DNA of 64,000 bases from Gammaproteobacteria bacterium (GTDB taxonomy: Bacteria; Pseudomonadota; Gammaproteobacteria; JACQPQ01). Below the pieces are notes generated by a model. It saw nothing but the letters and a program-made list of their open reading frames with translations. It was not told the DNA's origin and did no database searches. The stretch covers positions 20,767 through 84,766 of the forward strand of contig JACQPQ010000018.1 in the NCBI GenBank assembly GCA_016207405.1, read 5' to 3'. The stretch's first letter is position 1. Every line of letters starts with the position of its first letter. Below are positions 5,174 through 16,126 of this stretch, one piece after another. Made by a program: the position numbers and the translations under genes.

Positions 5174-6721
5174 ATGAAATTTTTTAATACCGCGGGACCG
5201 ATGGTACCAGAAGATCACTACTGTATAGATCCCTTAGAAAGAATTAACAGAAAAGAAATTTTAAATCTTATTGATCAAAAAAAATATTTCGTCATGCACG
5301 CGCCCAGGCAGACAGGGAAGACGAGTTGTTTGTTGGCTTTGAGGAATTACTTGAACGCGAGTGGGAATTTTTATTGTGTTTATGTAAACGTTGAAGATGC
5401 GCAGGCTGCAAGAGAAGATGTGGAAAGGGGCATTAGAACCATATTGTCGAAAATGGAGGGGACAATCAGTATTAATAATTCAAACATTTATCCACTATTT
5501 CAATCCATTTATCTGGAATCAAATACCATACCCGCGCATAACGCCTTGGGACGGGTTTTTCAAAAATTTAGTTCTTCTTTAGATAAACCACTTGTTATTT
5601 TCTTTGATGAGATTGATTCATTGGTAGGAGACACCTTAATTTCAGTACTGAGGCAATTAAGAGGTAGTTATGAAAATCGCCCTAAAAACTTTCCCCAGTC
5701 CATCATTTTATGTGGGATACGTGATGTCAGGGATTACAGGATTCATTCGGATAAGGAAAAAGCAATCATAACCGGCGGAAGTGCCTTTAATATTAGATCA
5801 GAATCTTTGAGACTTGGCGATTTCAGTGAAGAAGAAACAAAGAAATTATATCTTGAACACACCAAGGAAACGGGGCAAATTTTCAATGAAGATGTGTTTC
5901 CATACGTTTTTAAATTAACCGAAGGCCAACCCTGGCTTGTCAACGCCCTGGCTTACGAGACCTGTTTCAAATTAGAAAAAGACCGATCAAAGCCCATCAC
6001 AAAGGAGCTCATAGAAGAGGCAAAAGAGAACATGATTTTGAGGCGGGATACCCATATCGATATTTTGATTGATAAGTTGAGTGAAGATAGAGTTAGACGA
6101 GTCATCGACCCAATACTTTGTTCGGATGAAGATTCGCCTGAATTAAATCCAAACGATGTTTCCTATGTTATAGATATGGGCTTGATAAAAAAGAAATTGG
6201 GAAAGTATGTTGTTTCAAATGCGATTTACAGAGAAATAATTCCTCGCGAACTTATACAAACAACGCAGTATTCTTTAGAACAAGACATCCTTTGGTATAC
6301 CGAAAACAACAAATTAAGAATGGACAAACTTCTTGAGCGTTTTCAAGAATTTTTCAGAGAGAATTCTGAGGCTTGGCTTGAGCGATTCGCCTACAAAGAA
6401 GCCGGGCCCCATTTACTCCTTATGGCCTTTTTGCAAAGGGTTTTAAATGGTGGCGGGCGGATATTTAGAGAATATGGTCTGGGAATGAAAAGGATGGACA
6501 TATTAGTTGAATATCACAATGAAAAATTCGCTTTGGAGTTAAAAATATTAAGAAACGAAAAGACAAAAGAAGAAGGACTCAAACAGTTAAAGATGTATAT
6601 GGATAAATCAGCTGCGAAAGACGGCCATCTGATAATCTTTAATAAAAGCAAAGAAATATCATGGGGACAAAAAATTTATAAAGAACAAGCAAGAGATAAT
6701 ATTACGATTTGGGGGATGTAA
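5174..6721 (+). CDS. Fusion of a predicted AAA-ATPase (PF09820-like) with a C-terminal PD-(D/E)XK nuclease (PDDEXK_9-like). Function unknown.
   Basis: Walker A HAPRQTGKTS, Walker B LVIFFDEIDS, and a C-terminal D...ELK nuclease motif (RMDILVEY...ALELKIL). AT-rich relative to its neighbours. Confidence 0.7.
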   Translation: MKFFNTAGPMVPEDHYCIDPLERINRKEILNLIDQKKYFVMHAPRQTGKTSCLLALRNYLNASGNFYCVYVNVEDAQAAREDVERGIRTILSKMEGTISINNSNIYPLFQSIYLESNTIPAHNALGRVFQKFSSSLDKPLVIFFDEIDSLVGDTLISVLRQLRGSYENRPKNFPQSIILCGIRDVRDYRIHSDKEKAIITGGSAFNIRSESLRLGDFSEEETKKLYLEHTKETGQIFNEDVFPYVFKLTEGQPWLVNALAYETCFKLEKDRSKPITKELIEEAKENMILRRDTHIDILIDKLSEDRVRRVIDPILCSDEDSPELNPNDVSYVIDMGLIKKKLGKYVVSNAIYREIIPRELIQTTQYSLEQDILWYTENNKLRMDKLLERFQEFFRENSEAWLERFAYKEAGPHLLLMAFLQRVLNGGGRIFREYGLGMKRMDILVEYHNEKFALELKILRNEKTKEEGLKQLKMYMDKSAAKDGHLIIFNKSKEISWGQKIYKEQARDNITIWGM

Positions 6722-6762
6722 AAATCTATTCGTGCACGATTTAAAAGTTTCGAAACTCAACT

Positions 6763-8025
6763 ATGAACACTTTATCCTCTTTAAAAGAATTTGATCTAGA
6801 CGTCTGGCAGGCGATCGAAGGCGAGGCCACGCGACAAGAGGAACACTTGGAACTGATAGCCTCTGAAAACTATACAAGCACTCGCGTACTGGAAGCGCAA
6901 GGCTCTGTATTGACTAATAAATATGCAGAAGGGTATCCCGGTAAACGATATTATGGTGGCTGCCAGTATGTTGACCAAGCGGAAGCCTTAGCTATTCTCC
7001 GTGCCAAACAACTTTTCCATGCGGACTACGCGAACGTTCAACCGCATTCAGGCTCGTCTGCTAACATGGCAGCTTACATGGCACTTATAAAGCCTGGAGA
7101 TCTCATTCTTGGAATGCAGCTCGCTTCTGGCGGGCACTTAACCCATGGGGCTAAAGTCAGCTTCTCAGGACTGTTATACAAGAGCGTTCAATATGGCGTT
7201 GATCTTGCTACAGGACTTATCGACTACGGTGAAGTAGAACGTCTGGCAAATGAGCATCGTCCAAAGCTCATCATGGCCGGATTTTCCGCTTATTCCAGAA
7301 CGGTAGACTGGCAAAAATTTCGGGACATTGCTGACCGGGTTAAAGCTTACCTCATTGTGGACATGGCGCATGTGGCGGGGCTTGTTGCGGCAGATTTGTA
7401 TCCCAGCCCCGTCTCTATTGCGGATGTCACAACGACTACTACGCACAAAACACTACGAGGCCCGCGAGGTGGCATGATTTTAGCTAAAGCGAACCCTGAA
7501 ATTGAGAAGAAATTAAACAGCATTATTTTCCCGGGGATCCAGGGAGGGCCGTTGATGCATGTGATTGCGGCAAAAGCCGTCGCTTTAAAAGAAGCAATGT
7601 CCCCTGAATTCAAAATTTATCAGCAGCAAGTCATTACCAATGCGAGAAAAATGGCAGCCGTGTTTATACAAAGAGGGTATCCGGTTTTATCGGGTGGTAC
7701 AGACAACCATTTATTTCTAGTGGACTTGAGAAGCAAACCGATTACAGGATTAGAAGCAGAAGAAGCTCTAGGCAAGGCTTATATTACGGTGAATAAAAAT
7801 GCCATCCCACAGGATCCGAGGCCGCCGACCATCACGAGTGGGATCCGGATAGGCACTCCTGCCATGACGACGCGAGGGATGAAAGAAGAGCATGCTGCCG
7901 AAGTAGCCCATTGGATGTGTGATGTGTGTGATGCGCCCAAGGACGCCGCATGTCTCGCTCGCACAAAAGAAAACGTTCTTTGTTTGTGTCGGCAGTTTCC
8001 GGTTTACCGCCCTGGCCCCCTCTGA
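6763..8025 (+). CDS. glyA: Serine hydroxymethyltransferase
   Basis: [10 protein letters not shown] motif and the PLP-lysine region [14 protein letters not shown]. 420 aa. Confidence 0.95.
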
Positions 8026-8026
8026 A

Positions 8027-9145
8027 ATGTTTACACCTCAAGAAAGTGCTTGGATGCAGGAAGCACTTCTTCTTGCAGAAAAAGGACTTTACACGACCCA
8101 TCCGAATCCACGGGTAGGCTGTCTCATTGTAAAAAATGGACGTGGGATCGGACGCGGATGGCATACGCGCGTGGGTGAGCCGCATGCGGAAGTTTTGGCC
8201 ATGCAGGAAGCAGGCGAGGAAGCGCGAGGCGGAACGGGGTATGTGACTTTAGAACCTTGCGCACACTTTGGGCATACCCCTCCTTGCGATGAAGCTTTGA
8301 TTTCCGCAGGACTTTCACGAGTGGTCGCGAGCACTCTGGATCCTTACTGGCAAGTTTCGGGCCGTGGGGTAAAACATCTGAAGCAGGCTGGAATTCAAGT
8401 GGATGTGGGCCTTTTACAAGAAAAAGCGCGCACTTTAAATAAAGGCTATTTTAAGCGACATACCCAAAAAGTGCCTTGGGTTACGTGCAAAATGGCTATG
8501 AGTTTAGACGGAAGAACGGCACTTGCGACAGGCGAAAGTAAATGGCTGACAGGCTCTGAAGTAAAACAAGCGGTTATGCACCTTCGCGCGCAATCCTCTG
8601 CCATTATAACGGGAGTTGGGACGGTTCTTCAGGATGATCCCTTCCTCACGGTGCGCGGTAAGGAAACAGAGTGCCAGCCTCTTCGGGTGGTTGTAGATTC
8701 TCACCTAAGAAGTTCTGAAGTGGCACACATTTTTAGTCAACCGCCCACCACTTTGATAGCAACGACTTCTCGAGATCTTAAAAAAACAGAGGCGTTTCAG
8801 GGGAGAGGGGTTAAAGTAGTGAGATTGCCTGCCAACTCCAAAGGCCAGGTTTCCTGTCGAAGTCTCTTGGAGTATCTTGCAACCACACAGGCGGTCAATG
8901 AAGTCTTATTAGAAGCAGGGCCTACACTTGCTGGATCTTTTCTTTCAGAGCGCTTGATCGATGAAATAGTCATTTTTATGGCACCCAAATTGCTAGGAAA
9001 TTCTGCGCAAGGCTTATTTCAATTGCCGTTTATTCAAAAATTAGAAGAGGCACTCCCTCTTCAGATCCTCCATATAAAACCTGTCGGATATGATTGGCAA
9101 ATTCACGTGAAACCTTGTTATAAAAATGAAGTACCCCCTCCCTGA
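8027..9145 (+). CDS. ribD: Bifunctional riboflavin biosynthesis deaminase/reductase
   Basis: Deaminase zinc motifs HAEVLA and PCAHFGHTPPC plus a C-terminal RibG reductase domain. The in-frame ATG at 8027, right after the glyA stop, is preferred over the overlapping 7919 start. Confidence 0.9.
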   Translation: MFTPQESAWMQEALLLAEKGLYTTHPNPRVGCLIVKNGRGIGRGWHTRVGEPHAEVLAMQEAGEEARGGTGYVTLEPCAHFGHTPPCDEALISAGLSRVVASTLDPYWQVSGRGVKHLKQAGIQVDVGLLQEKARTLNKGYFKRHTQKVPWVTCKMAMSLDGRTALATGESKWLTGSEVKQAVMHLRAQSSAIITGVGTVLQDDPFLTVRGKETECQPLRVVVDSHLRSSEVAHIFSQPPTTLIATTSRDLKKTEAFQGRGVKVVRLPANSKGQVSCRSLLEYLATTQAVNEVLLEAGPTLAGSFLSERLIDEIVIFMAPKLLGNSAQGLFQLPFIQKLEEALPLQILHIKPVGYDWQIHVKPCYKNEVPPP

Positions 9146-10290: not shown

Positions 10291-10367
10291 GCGCCCGTAG
10301 CTCAGTTGGATAGAGTTCCTGGCTTCGAACCAGGCGGTCGGGGGTTCGAGTCCCTCCGGGCGCGCCA
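10291..10367 (+). tRNA. tRNA-Arg, anticodon TCG
   Basis: 77-nt cloverleaf GCGCCCG/.../CGGGCGC-G-CCA with anticodon loop CUUCGAA and T-loop GGTTCGAGTCC. Closely resembles E. coli tRNA-Arg. Confidence 0.85.
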
Positions 10368-10372
10368 GTTAA
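10322..10372 (+). repeat. attL, a 51-bp direct repeat comprising the 3' half of tRNA-Arg
   Basis: Identical to 16076..16126 (gcttcgaaccaggcggtcgggggttcgagtccctccgggcgcgccagttaa). Confidence 0.85.
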
Positions 10373-10380
10373 TCAAGGGG

Positions 10381-10869
10381 TTATACAACTTTCCGCAAAC
10401 CCATCTCAACCCCTTGCGGGACTTTTGCGGGAGCTACGTTCCGCAAAAGCTTGAGTACTGTGACTGTAGCGCTTTCCTTTTTCTCACACACTGCGTTTGC
10501 AGCACGAACTAAATTGGTTAATTCAGCTGCAGAATAGTGCGTGGTTATCCTCCCCGATCGATGCCCCAGTAAATCCTGTCGATCTTCAAAACTCACCCCT
10601 GCGGAACGCAAACGCCTCCCAAAGGTATGTTTCAGATCATGCACGCGAACGTCTATGCCAGCCAGTTTGCGCGCACGCTTCCAAGCTGAGTTGTTCATCT
10701 TGGTAACATAATGCCCTTTATAGGTAAAAACATATTCAGGATGCATCCCACGAACTTCTTCAAGCACCGATTTGGCAACACTGTTTAGCACTACCAATCG
10801 ATCCTCCCGGTTTTTGACAACATGAGCAGGGATCAAAAATACGCTCGTGTTTAACTCTGGTACAGACAC
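10381..10869 (-). pseudogene. Tyrosine recombinase/integrase remnant carrying only the C-terminal catalytic domain
   Basis: HDLKHTFGRRLRSAGVSFEDRQDLLGHRSGRITTHYSAAEL carries the R/HxxR/Y catalytic signature. Only about 160 aa remain and no N-terminal SAM/core-binding domain is recognisable upstream. Confidence 0.7.
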
Positions 10870-11274
10870 TTCCCACTCCCATCGTAGTTGACATACCTCT
10901 TAGAACACTGCGCAGTTACCTCTATCGACCAAAGTATCGATCCTTCTCGCGGCTACCGCGACGATTTTGAAATTGTAGTGGTTTACCGCTACCAGTACCA
11001 AACCATTTCTGTGTATGGCAAGCCTGGTACAAGCCACAATTTCAACGGCAAAACTTATGGTTGCGTGCTGTTTGAAGGCCACCCACTTGCCGCAGGTAGT
11101 GCTCCACGCGGTGCCAAAATGACTGAAGAACAGGCTACCGAGGTGTTCAATGCCTTGGTGAGTCTGTAAATCGGAAACAAGAGTATTTAAACCGTCATGT
11201 CCACGCATGACCTAGATTTGTAATGACCGTCACCACGTGGGTTTGGTGACACAGCCCTTTGAAAGGGGCAAAAG

Positions 11275-11910
11275 ATGAACAGTTTGCAATACAATGATGG
11301 CCTGCTCAATGCAGGTCGGACCCCGAAACTATTTTTGGTTCTCTCCAATGGAAATATCGTAAAGTTCCAGGGAGAAAACATCCCCGGCATCCTGGTCGTC
11401 AAATCCAGCAAATACCAAAAAAATGGCAAGTGGTCGAACACCACGTACCAACTGGAAATAGCTGATGGAGTTGGCGTCTGGGAAGCAACATCCCAAATGC
11501 ACCAAGGCTATTGGGATGCAATCGCTTCGTGGGAAGAAGCACAGGCGCACGTTATTGCACAAGGGGGCCACTTCGTTTCGGTGGAGGAAGTCAAACGAGT
11601 CGTTTTGGCTACGTGGGAAAAGGCCGCCGCTCGGTTTGATACCACAGCCGAAGCATTGGCGAAAATGACTGTGGCGCCAACGGAGCCAAAATCGTTTACC
11701 TTTGGAAGCCCAACCAACCGCGCCATCGAAAATGGCTATTGGGAATCCCCGAAGGAACACGATGGCGTGAGCTTCAAATTGGTTGATCCCACCAAAGGAT
11801 GGACAACGGGAAATGTGATCGCAGACAAACCTGGGATCGTGGTCACTAATGTAACGCATCGCTCAGGGATGCATGGAGGCTACTACACCATTCAGTATAT
11901 GGTTCAGTAG
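11275..11910 (+). CDS. Hypothetical island cargo protein with no recognisable domain
   Basis: 211-aa ORF followed by a hairpin and T-run at 11977..11995. Confidence 0.4.
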   Translation: MNSLQYNDGLLNAGRTPKLFLVLSNGNIVKFQGENIPGILVVKSSKYQKNGKWSNTTYQLEIADGVGVWEATSQMHQGYWDAIASWEEAQAHVIAQGGHFVSVEEVKRVVLATWEKAAARFDTTAEALAKMTVAPTEPKSFTFGSPTNRAIENGYWESPKEHDGVSFKLVDPTKGWTTGNVIADKPGIVVTNVTHRSGMHGGYYTIQYMVQ

Positions 11911-11976
11911 TCGTCCAACCGCACGGCTTTTGCCAACACCGACAATCTACAAGCAGCAATAAACGGTGTTAAACAG

Positions 11977-11995
11977 AGGCCCGCGGCCTTTTTAT
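11977..11995 (+). terminator. Putative rho-independent terminator
   Basis: aggcccgcggcct stem followed by ttttta. Confidence 0.4.
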
Positions 11996-12072
11996 TTGAG
12001 TCTCAAAAATAAACGGTCGATTATTTTTGAGTTATAATCGCTGCCTCAAGGGATAAAACCGAGACTGCTGAC

Positions 12073-12696
12073 ATGGACGAAACCACATCTCAAAAAACTA
12101 TTTCCTATCTGCGTGTTTCCACCATCGATCAAGATTTAGAAAAAAACAAAGCGGATATTCTGCATCTGGCGCACGAAAAACGTTTGGGTAAGGTTAAATT
12201 TGTGCAGGAAAAGATTTCGGGCGCCATCCCCTGGCGACAACGCAAGGTTGGCAAGGTGGTCAATCAACTCAAAAAGGGGGATGCATTGATTGTGAGTGAG
12301 CTTTCGCGCCTGGGTAGAAGCATGTTGGAATGCATGGAAATTCTTTCTATCGCCGCCCAAAAGGGTATTAGGGTTTATTCTGTCAAAGGTAACTGGCAAT
12401 TAGATGGCAGCATCCAAAGCAAAATCATCGCCATGGCCTTTAGTATGGCGGCGGAAATAGAGCGAGATCTGATCTCGAAACGCACGATTGAGGCCCTGCG
12501 CGCCAAAAAAGCCCAGGGCGTTACACTTGGCCGTCCTAAAGGCTCTGGCAGCAGCAAGCTCGACCCTGTTGCCCCTAAAATCCAAACAATGCTTAACAAG
12601 GGTGCAACCAAACGCGCCATTGCCAACCGTTTTAGCACCACGGAATCTAACCTGTATGTGTGGCTTAAGAAGCGGGAGGCCCTTGCAACAGCCTGA
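12073..12696 (+). CDS. Small serine recombinase of the resolvase/invertase family
   Basis: YLRVSTIDQ catalytic serine motif, the LSRLGRS motif and a C-terminal HTH. 207 aa. Confidence 0.85.
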   Translation: MDETTSQKTISYLRVSTIDQDLEKNKADILHLAHEKRLGKVKFVQEKISGAIPWRQRKVGKVVNQLKKGDALIVSELSRLGRSMLECMEILSIAAQKGIRVYSVKGNWQLDGSIQSKIIAMAFSMAAEIERDLISKRTIEALRAKKAQGVTLGRPKGSGSSKLDPVAPKIQTMLNKGATKRAIANRFSTTESNLYVWLKKREALATA

Positions 12697-13418
12697 TGAT
12701 TTCGGCCCTCTAATCCCCTGTATGCCTAGTGTTTGGTGGTTACAATTTGTTGCAAAACTTTACGTCCCAGTAACAGACAAGCGCCAAGCTTACGGCTATT
12801 ATCTAAACAATAGGATTTGGAATCGTCATGGCAGACCTAAAGCGCATCAAAAAATAAGGGCTTAGGCGTTAACAAAAAGTTGCCAAGTTTTACACAAATG
12901 TAACAGACAAACCCTAGAATCCGATGTACGCTTAAACTCACAAGGACAAAAACCCGTCAAGGCCGACCCGAAATCAAAATGCCATTTCAGGTGGATATAG
13001 AGATAGGCGAGTTTCGATAAAAACGAAGGTTTATTTTTGAGACTTTTAAGCACGTTTTTATCGGAGTTTTTCAAGGTGTAAAAAAACACAGTTTGAAAGA
13101 CAGGTTTACCCTTCCTCTTTATTCATTTTTTACCATCTTCTGAAATCTGTCTGTCACTATTCGTCTTTAGCCATTGGTTCGTAAAAAGCCATTAGGCGCA
13201 AGCGCATTTATACAAATGCTTTTGCATCTAGTGGTTTTCTCTTGAAGTTTATCTGATAAAAACTTCAAGCCATTTGGCTTCAGATCAGTTGTCATAATGA
13301 CGCTGCCTGTTGTCCAGATGGTTTGAAGTGAAGTCTAATTTCCCGTTTTTTTTTATTTTCCAATGGAGCCCTCTGCCGATGCAATACTCGGCTGGTTAAA
13401 AACCAAGGGGGAAACGGC

Positions 13419-14201
13419 ATGTTAACATTAGGCAATCTTTCTCTTAGTTCCAATGTTGCAATCGTTTTCGCTAAGGGCGAAAAACTCCGCGTAAGATTTA
13501 TGTGTTCCTGCGGAGAAGACCTTGCAACAGGGCAAGGCCAGTGGGGTAGTCAGGATTTGGTGTTTAAAAGACCCACTGTGGTTGTAGTCGAGGAATTGGG
13601 AGACTGGAGAGGCAAGTTGTCTTGCAAGCATCTTCGCTTTGCGAGAGCACTGCGTGAGGAAAGGCTAACCTCAGAGCTTTCGAATGCGGTATCTCCGTAT
13701 CCGAAGTTACGGACGGCTCTAAATCACGCAGGTGTACCGAAAATGGAGGTGCCGGGTGGCTTCAATCGTGCGTTGAAGTATGCGGACGAAATTCTCGTTC
13801 CTGATTACTCAACAACGTCTGGTTCATCCGGTTGGTTGGTCAAGAATTCTGAGGTGGGGAAGTATTTGAGAGGGTTACCCCCGCTAAAGGATTCTGGGGA
13901 GATAGGGCGCATTTGGGTTAACTTCGTTGGGTTCGTAAATACACCTGACGAGTGTTCAATCCGAGTTTGTTCCGAAGATCCGACTGGGCAGGAAGCACCC
14001 AGCTATTACGACTGGCCACGTGGCTGCTATATGTCGACCAACCACCAGATTTTTAGGGTGGAGTTCGATAAAAAAAGCCATCGCGTGAAGAAGATTTATA
14101 ATCAGACTCATGGCACCGAGCAGGGAGAGGTCTACTACAAGGTTCGCCCTGTAGGCAGATCGATATCTGTTGGCCAACGTCTGCCACGCGATTGCCGGTA
14201 G
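13419..14201 (+). CDS. Hypothetical protein with no recognisable domain, flanked by related palindromic sites
   Basis: 260-aa ORF with a GTG/ATG start. Confidence 0.35.
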   Translation: MLTLGNLSLSSNVAIVFAKGEKLRVRFMCSCGEDLATGQGQWGSQDLVFKRPTVVVVEELGDWRGKLSCKHLRFARALREERLTSELSNAVSPYPKLRTALNHAGVPKMEVPGGFNRALKYADEILVPDYSTTSGSSGWLVKNSEVGKYLRGLPPLKDSGEIGRIWVNFVGFVNTPDECSIRVCSEDPTGQEAPSYYDWPRGCYMSTNHQIFRVEFDKKSHRVKKIYNQTHGTEQGEVYYKVRPVGRSISVGQRLPRDCR

Positions 14202-14499
14202 CAAAACGCCCGCCCGGGGGTTAATCCGGGATGCCTTTTCAGGTTGTTATATGCTCGGCGTTTGTGGTGGAAACACTGCAGGCGCCTTTTATTTTTCAGT
14301 CTCCAAAATAAACCTTCTTTTTTACTTGAGACTTCCTGCCAGATTGAACAGAAGACAGGCGCGGCGGTACAAGTAGCCAAACATTTCCATTGACAGCTTT
14401 TCAGATCGCGGGGTAAGCTTGCTGGCAAGACTTAGTGGGACGACAGAAAATTTCTGGAATTAAAAACAAAATGAACGTCACTCTTGTTATCGGCGTCAC

Positions 14500-15225
14500 A
14501 TGCCATTAAAAAGCGAATTTTCAAGCATGCATAAGCCAAAGAAATCAGAGAACCCTAAGGTTACCCCCCTGACTTTTGAAGGTCTTGTTCACTCGATTCG
14601 TGCCATCCATGATGATCTGGCCGCTCAGGCTGATCGTGCCGTTAATATCAGCCTTACACTGCGGAACTGGTTGATTGGTTGTTACATCGCAGAGTATGAG
14701 TTGAATGGTGCCGATCGGGCCCATTATGGCGAGAAACTACTGCCGGAGCTTGCACACCAGCTTACCCAACTCAATGTCAGCAATTGCAACCGACGACAGT
14801 TGTATGATTACTTGAAGTTCTATCGTACCTATCCCCAAATAGTGCGGACGCTGTCGGCACAATTGAAACACTTGTCTCCCAAAACTATTCCCGCCGCCCT
14901 TGAAAAAGTGCCGACAGTGTCGGCACAATCTGGTCTACCACCGGAACGCCTCATCAGCTCCCTTTCCTATAGCATGTTTAAGTCTTTGGTAGAGATGGAT
15001 GACAACGTTAAACGAGCTTTCTACGAAATAGAATGCATTAAAGGCAATTGGTCCGTACGTGAACTTAAGAGGCAGATAGCTTCGCTCTACTTCGAGCGCT
15101 CTGGTTTGTCCTATGATAAGGTGAAATTGGCCAGGCTTGCTTGGGAGGGTACTGAAAAAGCAGAGGGCCAGGCCACGACTCAAGGTTTCCTGTCCGTTGT
15201 GAACTGTGGTGGGGTTGAAAACTAA
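14500..15225 (+). pseudogene. YhcG/DUF1016 family N-terminal domain only. The PD-(D/E)XK nuclease C-terminal domain is missing.
   Basis: AFYEIECIKGNWSVRELKRQIASLYFERSGLSYDK matches the DUF1016 N-terminal signature. The ORF ends without the nuclease half. Confidence 0.55.
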
Positions 15226-15403
15226 GTGATTGGCCTTTGGTGTCTGTCAGGGTTAGCGTTTTATTTTCCGCATCTATGGTTTGTACGCGGTAGTAGGCAC
15301 CTTTATGTAGCGGTTCGAAGGTGCGATTAGCGCGAATCATATCACCCACTTGGTAGCTGCTCACTTGTGCCTGTTGTGCTCGGGTAAGCCCTCGGTTAAC
15401 CAA
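15226..15403 (-). pseudogene. Fragment resembling the SH3-like domain of RecD/TraA-type helicases or relaxases
   Basis: LTRAQQAQVSSYQVGDMIRANRTFEPLHKGAYYRVQTID. The rest of the listed ORF is antisense to the YhcG fragment. Confidence 0.25.
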
Positions 15404-15440
15404 AATTGAGGTGTTGATTTCTTGATTAGACTTAAAGAGG

Positions 15441-15869
15441 GTGCATCAATCACATCCTAGGAATGAGCTAATTGCGAAAGTATTTTATGATACTGGTTTT
15501 ATTGAGAAGTGGGGTACAGGCACCACGAAAATGCTTACTCTGTGTAAGGAGCATAGGTTACCAGAACCGGAATTTTCGGAATATTCCGGCGGATTTTCCA
15601 TCCAATTTAAGTTTAAAGCCTCTTTGGGCGCCATTTCCCTAGCAATTAGAACTAAATCCCCTTTGAGTTCTAGGCAGTCTGACATCCTGCAGATCATTGG
15701 TAAGTATGGTAAAGCGAAGATGCAGTACATTTTGTCAGAGCTTAAAGATCCTCCAACCTCCAGGATGGTTTTAAAGGACCTAAATCATTTAAAGGAATTG
15801 GGTTTGATTGAGTTAGAAGGTAGTACAAAAGCAGCCTTATGGACTATTAAACCAAAAAATGCACCGTAA
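15441..15869 (+). pseudogene. C-terminal HATPase_c_4/wHTH fragment of a Schlafen/AlbA_2-type ATP-binding protein
   Basis: RNELIAKVFYDTGFIEKWGTGTTKMLTLCKEHRLPEPEFSEY matches the C-terminal domain of putative DNA-binding/RecG-like proteins. The N-terminal AlbA_2 part is absent. Confidence 0.5.
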
Positions 15870-16075
15870 TTTTTTATGCGAACTTTTTACGAACTTTATG
15901 CGAATCTTTTACGAACTTGTGGGCAACACCACATGCTGGTCACACTAAGACGCAAAAACCCTTGCGGGACTTTTGCGTATTTGGGTTATATGCCGTTATA
16001 GTTTGTTATGGGTTTGCAACGGGCGCCACACAAAATATATTGTTATTTATCAAGTTGTTAACTTTTACTTCTCTA

Positions 16076-16126
16076 GCTTCGAACCAGGCGGTCGGGGGTT
16101 CGAGTCCCTCCGGGCGCGCCAGTTAA
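16076..16126 (+). repeat. attR, the second copy of the 51-bp tRNA-Arg 3'-half repeat
   Basis: Exact duplicate of 10322..10372. Confidence 0.85.

Follow-up and report, generated by a model that had tools for sequence, protein, structure and literature searches.

In Bacteroides fragilis, numerous short promoter segments, dispersed through the genome, are inverted by the small serine recombinase Mpi (master DNA invertase; PMC5903667), and the simple inverted repeats under its control follow the consensus ARACGTTCGTN, as quoted in PMC8375218. Hin, Gin, Cin and Pin act locally, each beside a segment bounded by two inverted sites (such as hix and gix), and a Fis-bound enhancer in cis defines systems of this type. 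The res site of the transposon Tn3 is 114 bp long and holds three dimer sites (PMC2602789). Sin and the beta recombinase have simpler two-part sites (resH, six) and need an architectural protein and a second subsite. The beta recombinase carries out both resolution and inversion, a precedent for an inverting enzyme of the resolvase type. Here, we describe a locus in a 64,000-nucleotide stretch of DNA ("the window"; contig JACQPQ010000018.1, positions 20,767 to 84,766; G+C content, 44.7%) from a metagenome-assembled genome (MAG) labelled Gammaproteobacteria, where a small serine recombinase gene stands among three related palindromic sites, A, B and C, and where B and C enclose the gene for a 260-residue protein without assigned function (ORF260). 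With slightly more confidence than doubt, we read the locus as a local DNA-inversion switch, in which a Mpi-like recombinase of the resolvase lineage would flip ORF260 and site A would serve as an operator. In type, such a switch is a new instance of a known system, the local serine-invertase switch, drawn from a Mpi-like transposon-resolvase lineage.

Mpi (NF009949) is also a small serine recombinase and is the best named match of the window enzyme, aligned over the full length, and its quoted consensus (PMC8375218) fits the core of the sites of the enzyme's family, AAACG-NN-CGTTT. Unlike the Mpi system, the window has one 1.3-kb whole-gene segment beside the recombinase and no other site in its 64 kb, its host is a gammaproteobacterial MAG and not a member of the Bacteroidota, and its longer half-sites have an outer part of their own (TTTTKGAG). 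Like the systems of Hin, Gin, Cin and Pin, the locus has its small serine recombinase gene close to a segment that two inverted sites delimit, and A-tract-rich half-sites around an asymmetric 2-bp centre that sets orientation. It differs from them in a recombinase that is distant in sequence (48.7 bits to Gin, the best of the scores against solved structures given here), in sites of about 36 bp as against their 26 bp and in a third, palindromic site at the recombinase promoter.

The likeness to the Tn3 and gamma-delta resolvases runs through relatives of the window enzyme, 65-72% identical to it, which stand head-to-head with Tn3-type transposases at 23 loci and whose intergenic palindrome, half-site elements and TATAAT-like box follow the logic of the 114-bp res. 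In contrast, tblastn with the proteins that neighbour these relatives detected neither a transposase nor a remnant of one in the window, which also has no multi-subsite res (about 100-120 bp), site A being a single dimer site; its paired sites are inverted and not direct, and its recombinase has low similarity to the Tn3/gamma-delta resolvase (36-38 bits). Sin and beta are likewise distant in sequence (Sin/Bin3, 44 bits), and the window shows nothing comparable to their accessory requirements except a half-site at 13053-13065. An original prediction, made from the letters of the window, had likened the sites to res, hix or gix crossover sites; that they are the recombinase's own sites is very probable, on the core common to the family and a parallel locus (L003, below), and the likeness to res is not supported, canonical multi-subsite res being absent.

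Sites A, B and C and the segment between B and C

The features on which the argument depends are as follows (window coordinates).

11975-11998, plus strand: intrinsic terminator of ORF211 (stem at 11975-11991, then a T-run), directly left of A
11999-12034: site A, AGTCTCAAAAATAAACG-GT-CGATTATTTTTGAGTTA, centre GT at 12016-12017, a near-perfect palindrome and proposed operator or orphan crossover site
12073-12696, plus strand: small serine recombinase, 207 aa, Mpi-like, of the transposon-resolvase lineage
13009-13044: site B, outer half GAGTTTCGATAAAAACG, centre AA (on the plus strand) at 13026-13027, inner half GGTTTATTTTTGAGACT; proposed left crossover site
13028-14314: proposed invertible segment, 1,287 bp between the crossover centres, bounded by B and C
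13053-13065, plus strand: extra half-site copy CGTTTTTATCGGA, one mismatch, just inside the segment
13337-13418, plus strand: conserved 5' leader of ORF260 (conservation with locus L086)
13419-14201, plus strand: ORF260, 260 aa, cargo protein without assigned function
14257-14296, plus strand: intrinsic terminator of ORF260 (13-bp stem, then TTTTATTTTT), inside the segment at its right end, conserved in L086
14298-14333: site C, AGTCTCCAAAATAAACC-TT-CTTTTTTACTTGAGACT, centre TT at 14315-14316; proposed right crossover site

Three related palindromes had been predicted by the recombinase gene, and all three exist at or near the positions proposed, refined here to those listed. Alignment of the sites, which the prediction had suggested for defining half-sites and a dinucleotide core, yields for each a length of about 36 bp, with a 2-bp centre between half-sites of 14-17 nt when the family consensus serves as reference, the centre being GT in A and TT in B and C. 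The half-site AGTCTCAAAAATAAAC (16 nt, at most one mismatch) occurs at 11999 (plus strand), 13029 (minus strand) and 14298 (plus strand) and at no other place in the 64 kb; 100 dinucleotide-preserving shuffles contained no match, against the three observed. The inner half-sites of the three sites differ from one another by at most 1 of 16 nt, and the DNA around them is unrelated. On the minus strand (13044-13009), site B reads AGTCTCAAAAATAAACC-TT-CGTTTTTATCGAAACTC, and in site C the outer 6 nt are perfectly symmetrical between the halves (GTCTC...GAGAC).

B and C are mutually inverted. Their arms (13018-13044 and 14298-14324) match at 25 of 27 positions, as against 21 of 27 for the best inverted 27-mer over 100 shuffles of the 5.7-kb island, and they carry the same asymmetric centre, TT, in the same sense (AA on the plus strand at B). 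Productive pairs of serine-recombinase sites need an identical centre dinucleotide in the same sense. A stands in direct orientation relative to C, and the two centres differ (GT vs TT). The prediction spoke of an invertible or excisable cassette: the first fits this geometry of inverted sites with a common centre, and the second does not, since B and C are not direct repeats. Excision by way of A is also unsupported, because A, direct to C, has the other centre and no partner in the window.

On a half-site matrix, A, B and C reach 30-37 bits and nothing else in the window exceeds 13.5 bits, a gap that shows only that further copies do not exist in the window, because the matrix was trained on A, B and C themselves. 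Within these 64 kb, the motif is not the common genome-wide hairpin that the original prediction had kept in view. The same scan found no partner for A in the window, the region upstream of ORF211 included. A search of metagenome contigs for the B-type site TCGATAAAAACGNNSGTTTRTTT gave 0 hits.

The centres of B and C are 1,289 bp apart, and the pair lies 330 bp downstream of the recombinase gene. As predicted, the two sites flank ORF260; the 1,287-bp segment that encloses it consists of a 390-nt leader, ORF260 and a strong terminator at the right end. An 11-bp inverted repeat that had been noticed at B (cgataaaaacg at 13015-13025, cgtttttatcg at 13053-13063) is real and results from B's outer half-site together with the extra half-site copy CGTTTTTATCGGA, and the T-runs on the left sides of A and C belong to the intrinsic terminators (11975-11991 and 14257-14286) that directly precede both sites. 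A TATAAT hexamer (12033-12038) abuts A and lies 35 nt upstream of the recombinase start codon (12073), and the centre of A, a single dimer site, is 57 nt from that codon.

We also considered B and C as the ends of an insertion element and rejected this, as the flanks (GATAGGCG and TCCTGCCA) show no duplicated target site and the window contains no further copy. Inversion in silico gives the computed junctions GATAGGCGAGTTTCGATAAAAACGAAGGTTTATTTTGGAGACTGAAAAATAAAAGGCGCCTGCAGTG (left) and CGATAAAAACGTGCTTAAAAGTCTCAAAAATAAACCTTCTTTTTTACTTGAGACTTCCTGCC (right), and no new open reading frame or fusion of at least 60 aa arises across them.

The recombinase family, its DNA site and a parallel locus

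The recombinase matches PF00239 (8e-29) over residues 10-150, its N-terminal catalytic domain. Residues Y12, R14, S16, Q20, R79 and R82 are invariant in a 21-sequence alignment, the catalytic motif YLRVSTxxQ and the arginines of SRLGRS are likewise invariant across the family and the open reading frame is intact with all catalytic residues, although neighbouring genes are truncated. The Pfam scan of the protein returned no separate helix-turn-helix domain; in the C-terminal helix-turn-helix region, alignments to Gin, Sin and Tn3 resolvase chains extend to residues 195-203 and take in their DNA-binding domains. The best named match, NF009949, scores 182.8 bits over the full length, far more than Gin, Sin or the Tn3/gamma-delta resolvase, and does not reach the curated equivalog cut-off of 272. 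Relatives of the protein, Tn3-linked ones included, score 174-189 bits against the same model; as they score like the window protein, the family is best described as a Mpi-like sister group with transposon resolvase as its usual role. By these scores, it is sister to Mpi, below the equivalog level, and not Mpi proper.

The protein database holds thousands of relatives, which among the matches listed are 66-78% identical. Scanning one genome per species produced 411 matches, from which 79 loci were retained, spanning Pseudomonadota, Bacteroidota, Acidobacteriota, Chloroflexota, Planctomycetota, Chlamydiota, Rickettsiales, a Levyibacteriota genome and others; the relatives at these loci (L004-L082) are 65-72% identical across most bacterial phyla. 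The gene is head-to-head with a protein of about 996 aa (Tn3 transposase DDE domain, PF01526, plus DUF4158) at 23 of the 79 loci and precedes the gene for an rve-type transposase of about 555 aa at 26, with an AAA_22 ATPase of about 322 aa usually next after the rve transposase (22 loci). The Tn3-type and rve-type arrangements never occur together at one locus, and 31 loci have neither. No relative of the recombinase or of ORF260 was found on viral contigs, and none of the papers listed in a limited literature search names Mpi together with Tn3 and its res site.

With the conserved Tyr12 codon as the anchor, an alignment of the regions upstream of the relatives' genes shows a shared palindrome, TAAAAACG-NN-CGTTT(T/A)TA (core AAAACG-NN-CGTTTT), at a fixed distance of about 118 nt upstream of the start codon (range, about 80-140, mostly about 112; 68 distinct sites), followed in order by a GAAAAnCAtTGAtA-like stretch, a TATAAT-like box and the element GGTTTT(C/T)AT(C/T)GAA, the last about 35-50 nt from the start codon. 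At Tn3-type loci, the palindrome adjoins the transposase start codon and the intergenic space is conserved; this position, with the further elements, gives the layout of a multi-part res region. The palindrome core agrees with the Mpi consensus as quoted in PMC8375218, and the window sites fit that core in part (A, AAACGGTCGA; B, AAACGAAGGT). A second copy of the palindrome within 8 kb on either side was not found at the related loci, except possibly at one (L051). Several sites per locus are therefore special to the window and L003, the other loci of the family having one site only.

The inner core of the window sites, AAACG-NN-CGwTT, matches this palindrome upstream of the recombinase gene family, which makes A, B and C very probably the recombinase's own cognate sites. 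The inner 7 nt of the window half-sites (CGTTTRT) agree with those of the relatives, and the outer part is a conserved TTTTKGAG where the relatives are variable. The outer half of B, CGTTTTTATCGAA, corresponds to the family-wide element near the relatives' start codons and to the outer half of site s1 in L003. Five substitutions (E169K, E171Q/H, N176K, F182A and Y187F) unite the window protein with its closest relative, P0002; at each of these positions, 18-19 of 19 other relatives have one and the same residue, and all five substitutions map to the C-terminal part that binds DNA (residues 169-187). Their confinement to that part matches the longer, distinct outer half-site TTTTKGAG, and the substitutions fit a changed or extended site preference, without proving it.

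P0002 (78% identical, the only close relative) is encoded on the 4.2-kb contig L003, which carries two sites of its own, s1 (TTCGATAAAAACG-AC-CGTTTGTTTTATAG, centre at 24-25) and s2 (CTCCAAAATAAATG-GT-CGTTTGTTTTGGAG, centre at 596-597). These are inverted and 572 bp apart, their centres (AC and GT on the plus strand) match after reverse complementing and the segment between them encloses a 154-aa open reading frame (ORF154) and a terminator. Like B, s1 is a hybrid, with an outer half of the family type and an inner half of the subfamily type; s2 agrees with A at about 24/30 positions (read by eye) and in its centre, GT, and lies ahead of a DUF1016-recombinase gene pair. ORF154 starts 32 nt past the centre of s1, too close for the segment to hold a promoter, and must therefore be transcribed through the site from outside. 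We considered ORF154 as a member of the ORF260 family, but BLASTP, hhalign and a deep profile gave just an 18-residue resemblance, and homology was not accepted. That two independent loci show the same site logic with different cargo is the strongest argument for a functional arrangement.

The sites, with their geometry and statistics, the kinship within the family and the matching module at L003 lead us to infer binding, crossover position, inversion, an outside promoter and self-repression as follows. Recombinase dimers would bind B and C (about 36 bp each), and strand exchange at their common 2-bp centre, TT, would flip 1,287 bp comprising the leader, ORF260 and its terminator. As the segment now lies, ORF260 is co-directional with the recombinase gene and could be read from a promoter upstream of B; after a flip it would face away, with on/off phase variation as the predicted outcome. 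Site A should not exchange productively with B or C, since its centre differs, and it has no partner either. Tn3-type resolvases repress their own promoters by binding res. As A abuts the TATAAT hexamer, it would most simply be an operator for self-repression of the recombinase gene, as is usual for resolvases at res. The enzyme would thus come from a family that normally provides transposon resolvases, the transposase and the multi-part res having presumably been lost in this lineage.

The cargo gene, the islet and neighbouring features

At the nucleotide level, the ORF260 locus L086 (68% identical protein) is homologous to window positions 13337-14298, and the homology ends at the terminator just before C. 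ORF260, its leader and its terminator are therefore a unit that exists without these sites. The leader is 82% identical between the two at the nucleotide level, compared with 66% over the whole aligned, mostly coding stretch, and contains a small hairpin, located 15-25 nt ahead of the ribosome-binding site, that is kept with compensatory changes across six homologues. Homologues of ORF260 are found mostly in low-G+C, Patescibacteria-like contigs. ORF211, the gene left of A, was examined as a relative of ORF260 and is unrelated to it, its homologues lying in ordinary chromosomal contexts without a recombinase; they too come mostly from low-G+C contigs, including Patescibacteria (Minisyncoccus and Kaiserbacteria) at up to 43% identity. 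Judged by these matches, the Patescibacteria-like kin of both cargo genes are odd for a gammaproteobacterial genome.

Two further loci of the ORF260 family have repeats of another kind. In L084 (JGI Ga0117905_1002207, 5874-9011), a 56%-identical homologue with a G+C content of 55% in a contig of 39% lies between perfect 93-nt inverted repeats (7597-7689 and 8919-9011). Adjoining it, a 522-aa large serine recombinase lies between perfect 100-nt inverted repeats (5979-6078 and 7503-7602), beside a tRNA-Gln gene (5910-5984). L085 likewise has a 56%-identical homologue flanked by perfect 93-nt inverted repeats, with a 522-aa large serine recombinase adjoining. The arrangement of the repeat pieces at L084 and L085 suggests past or ongoing inversions, and the two loci offer a suggestive second link of the ORF260 family to a setting of recombinase and inverted repeats.

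The window carries a tRNA-Arg(tcg) gene at 10291-10367 (the tRNA alone passed the threshold in an Rfam scan of the window). A 54-nt stretch that includes the 3' part of this gene (10319-10372) is repeated at 16073-16126 with 98% identity, which places the recombinase and its sites inside a 5.75-kb islet inserted at the tRNA gene. The islet is decayed: its tyrosine integrase is reduced to the C-terminal 162 residues, and DUF1016_N and HATPase_c_4 fragments accompany it. Between the fragments lie the plus-strand genes for ORF211 (11275-11910), the serine recombinase and ORF260.

10381-10869, minus strand: truncated tyrosine integrase, in the islet
14500-15225: DUF1016_N fragment, matching the PADLOC candidate system PDC-S02, in the islet
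15441-15869: HATPase_c_4 fragment, in the islet

Further observations concern the right-hand part of the islet and its edge. The DUF1016_N fragment contains an internal imperfect direct and inverted repeat (14835-14933; 27 nt, 85%), which shows up as 33 inserted residues when the fragment is compared with the DUF1016 protein of L003. Four 11-nt units in tandem (TTTATGCGAAC, TTTTTACGAAC, TTTATGCGAAT and CTTTTACGAAC; 15873-15916) lie about 150 nt inward of the islet's right-hand repeat and might be iterons or arm-type sites for an integrase. Just outside the islet, a ParE-like toxin gene (86 aa, PF05016; 16167-16665, minus strand) has an overlapping upstream 83-aa open reading frame, which is likely its antitoxin.

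Competing explanations and significance

Several observations weigh against an inversion switch. The usual work of the family is resolution between direct repeats with accessory sites, and inversion activity would be deduced solely from the kinship to Mpi. Outer and inner halves match poorly, at 7/17 positions in B and 11/17 in C (counted from the sequence). Matrix scanning found no such sites at the other loci with ORF260 homologues (L084-L090), so the ORF260 gene is not generally tied to this site type. Promoter-like matches upstream of B (12774-12802 and 12891-12920) are no commoner than in shuffles, which leaves the on/off logic unproven. Three Logan contigs, which come from the two runs SRR12113385 and SRR12113390, match the window at 100% identity and have the same orientation across B or C (L001 covers 10343-14127, L002 11289-13341 and L083, by gene coordinates, about 13416-15951); assemblies drop minor variants, so this single orientation is weak evidence and shows only that the other orientation is not abundant.

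The decay of the islet is a further such point, in that the module could be a relic, and it makes this a serious rival, although we hold it unlikely. The sites would then be real, but B and C would have been left as they are by some earlier rearrangement, with no inversion today, and an enzyme still active would only repress its own gene at A. The truncated integrase, DUF1016 and HATPase_c_4 genes around it, the one orientation in all three contigs, the degenerate outer halves of B and C and the want of a partner for A are all as a relic would have them; three inner half-sites that differ by at most 1 of 16 nt amid unrelated DNA, an intact recombinase gene and the recurrence of the two-site module with different cargo in L003 are not. 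A protein that binds the sites purely as a regulator, with A, B and C as operators that keep the recombinase gene repressed and frame or insulate ORF260 and with no strand exchange, is improbable: all catalytic residues are conserved, and the matched asymmetric centres within each pair (B with C, and s1 with s2 in L003) would be purposeless for a pure repressor. Such a role would nonetheless suit the place of A against the TATAAT hexamer, 35 nt from the start codon, the half-site elements that adjoin start codons in the relatives and the general knowledge that Tn3-type resolvases repress themselves at res.

A slightly more improbable alternative is a resolvase-derived enzyme that captures, flips and perhaps exchanges units of open reading frame, terminator and site in the manner of an integron. 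The order of an unassigned open reading frame, a strong terminator and a site is indeed seen three times (ORF211-terminator-A, ORF260-terminator-C and ORF154-terminator-s2), the cargo genes are mutually unrelated with homologues mostly in Patescibacteria-like contigs, which would be the pool that a small lineage of window and L003 draws on, and the nucleotide homology between window and L086 ends at the left edge of C. However, insertion of a circle yields direct and not inverted repeats, the ORF260 homologues at L084-L090 lack these sites, the homology edge is also the end of a terminator and so the natural end of a transcription unit, and just two loci of the subfamily are known. That the sites arose by chance, or are common AT-rich hairpins of terminators with no relation to the recombinase, might be thought because A and C are AT-rich and directly follow terminators. 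This has next to no probability, being already contradicted by the shuffle statistics (three half-site matches against 0 in 100 shuffles; B/C arms at 25/27 against 21/27 at best) and the comparative data (a core common to the family's conserved site and homologous sites in L003), with no further copy in the 64 kb.

If the inversion switch works, the locus would be a local module for flipping a whole gene, run by a Mpi-like enzyme outside the Bacteroidota, and the ORF260 family would be phase-variable, hence probably costly or exposed to selection. Its well-defined sites (half-sites, a 2-bp centre and a separate operator) would suit the biochemistry of a poorly characterised branch of serine recombinases. 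The main value lies in this clean site architecture and in the link from resolvase to invertase: if true, it would tie the Mpi invertases to a very widespread and highly conserved family of transposon resolvases (65-72% identity across phyla, including Patescibacteria, Chlamydiota and Rickettsiales) and would suggest a route from resolvase to invertase by the loss of accessory sites.

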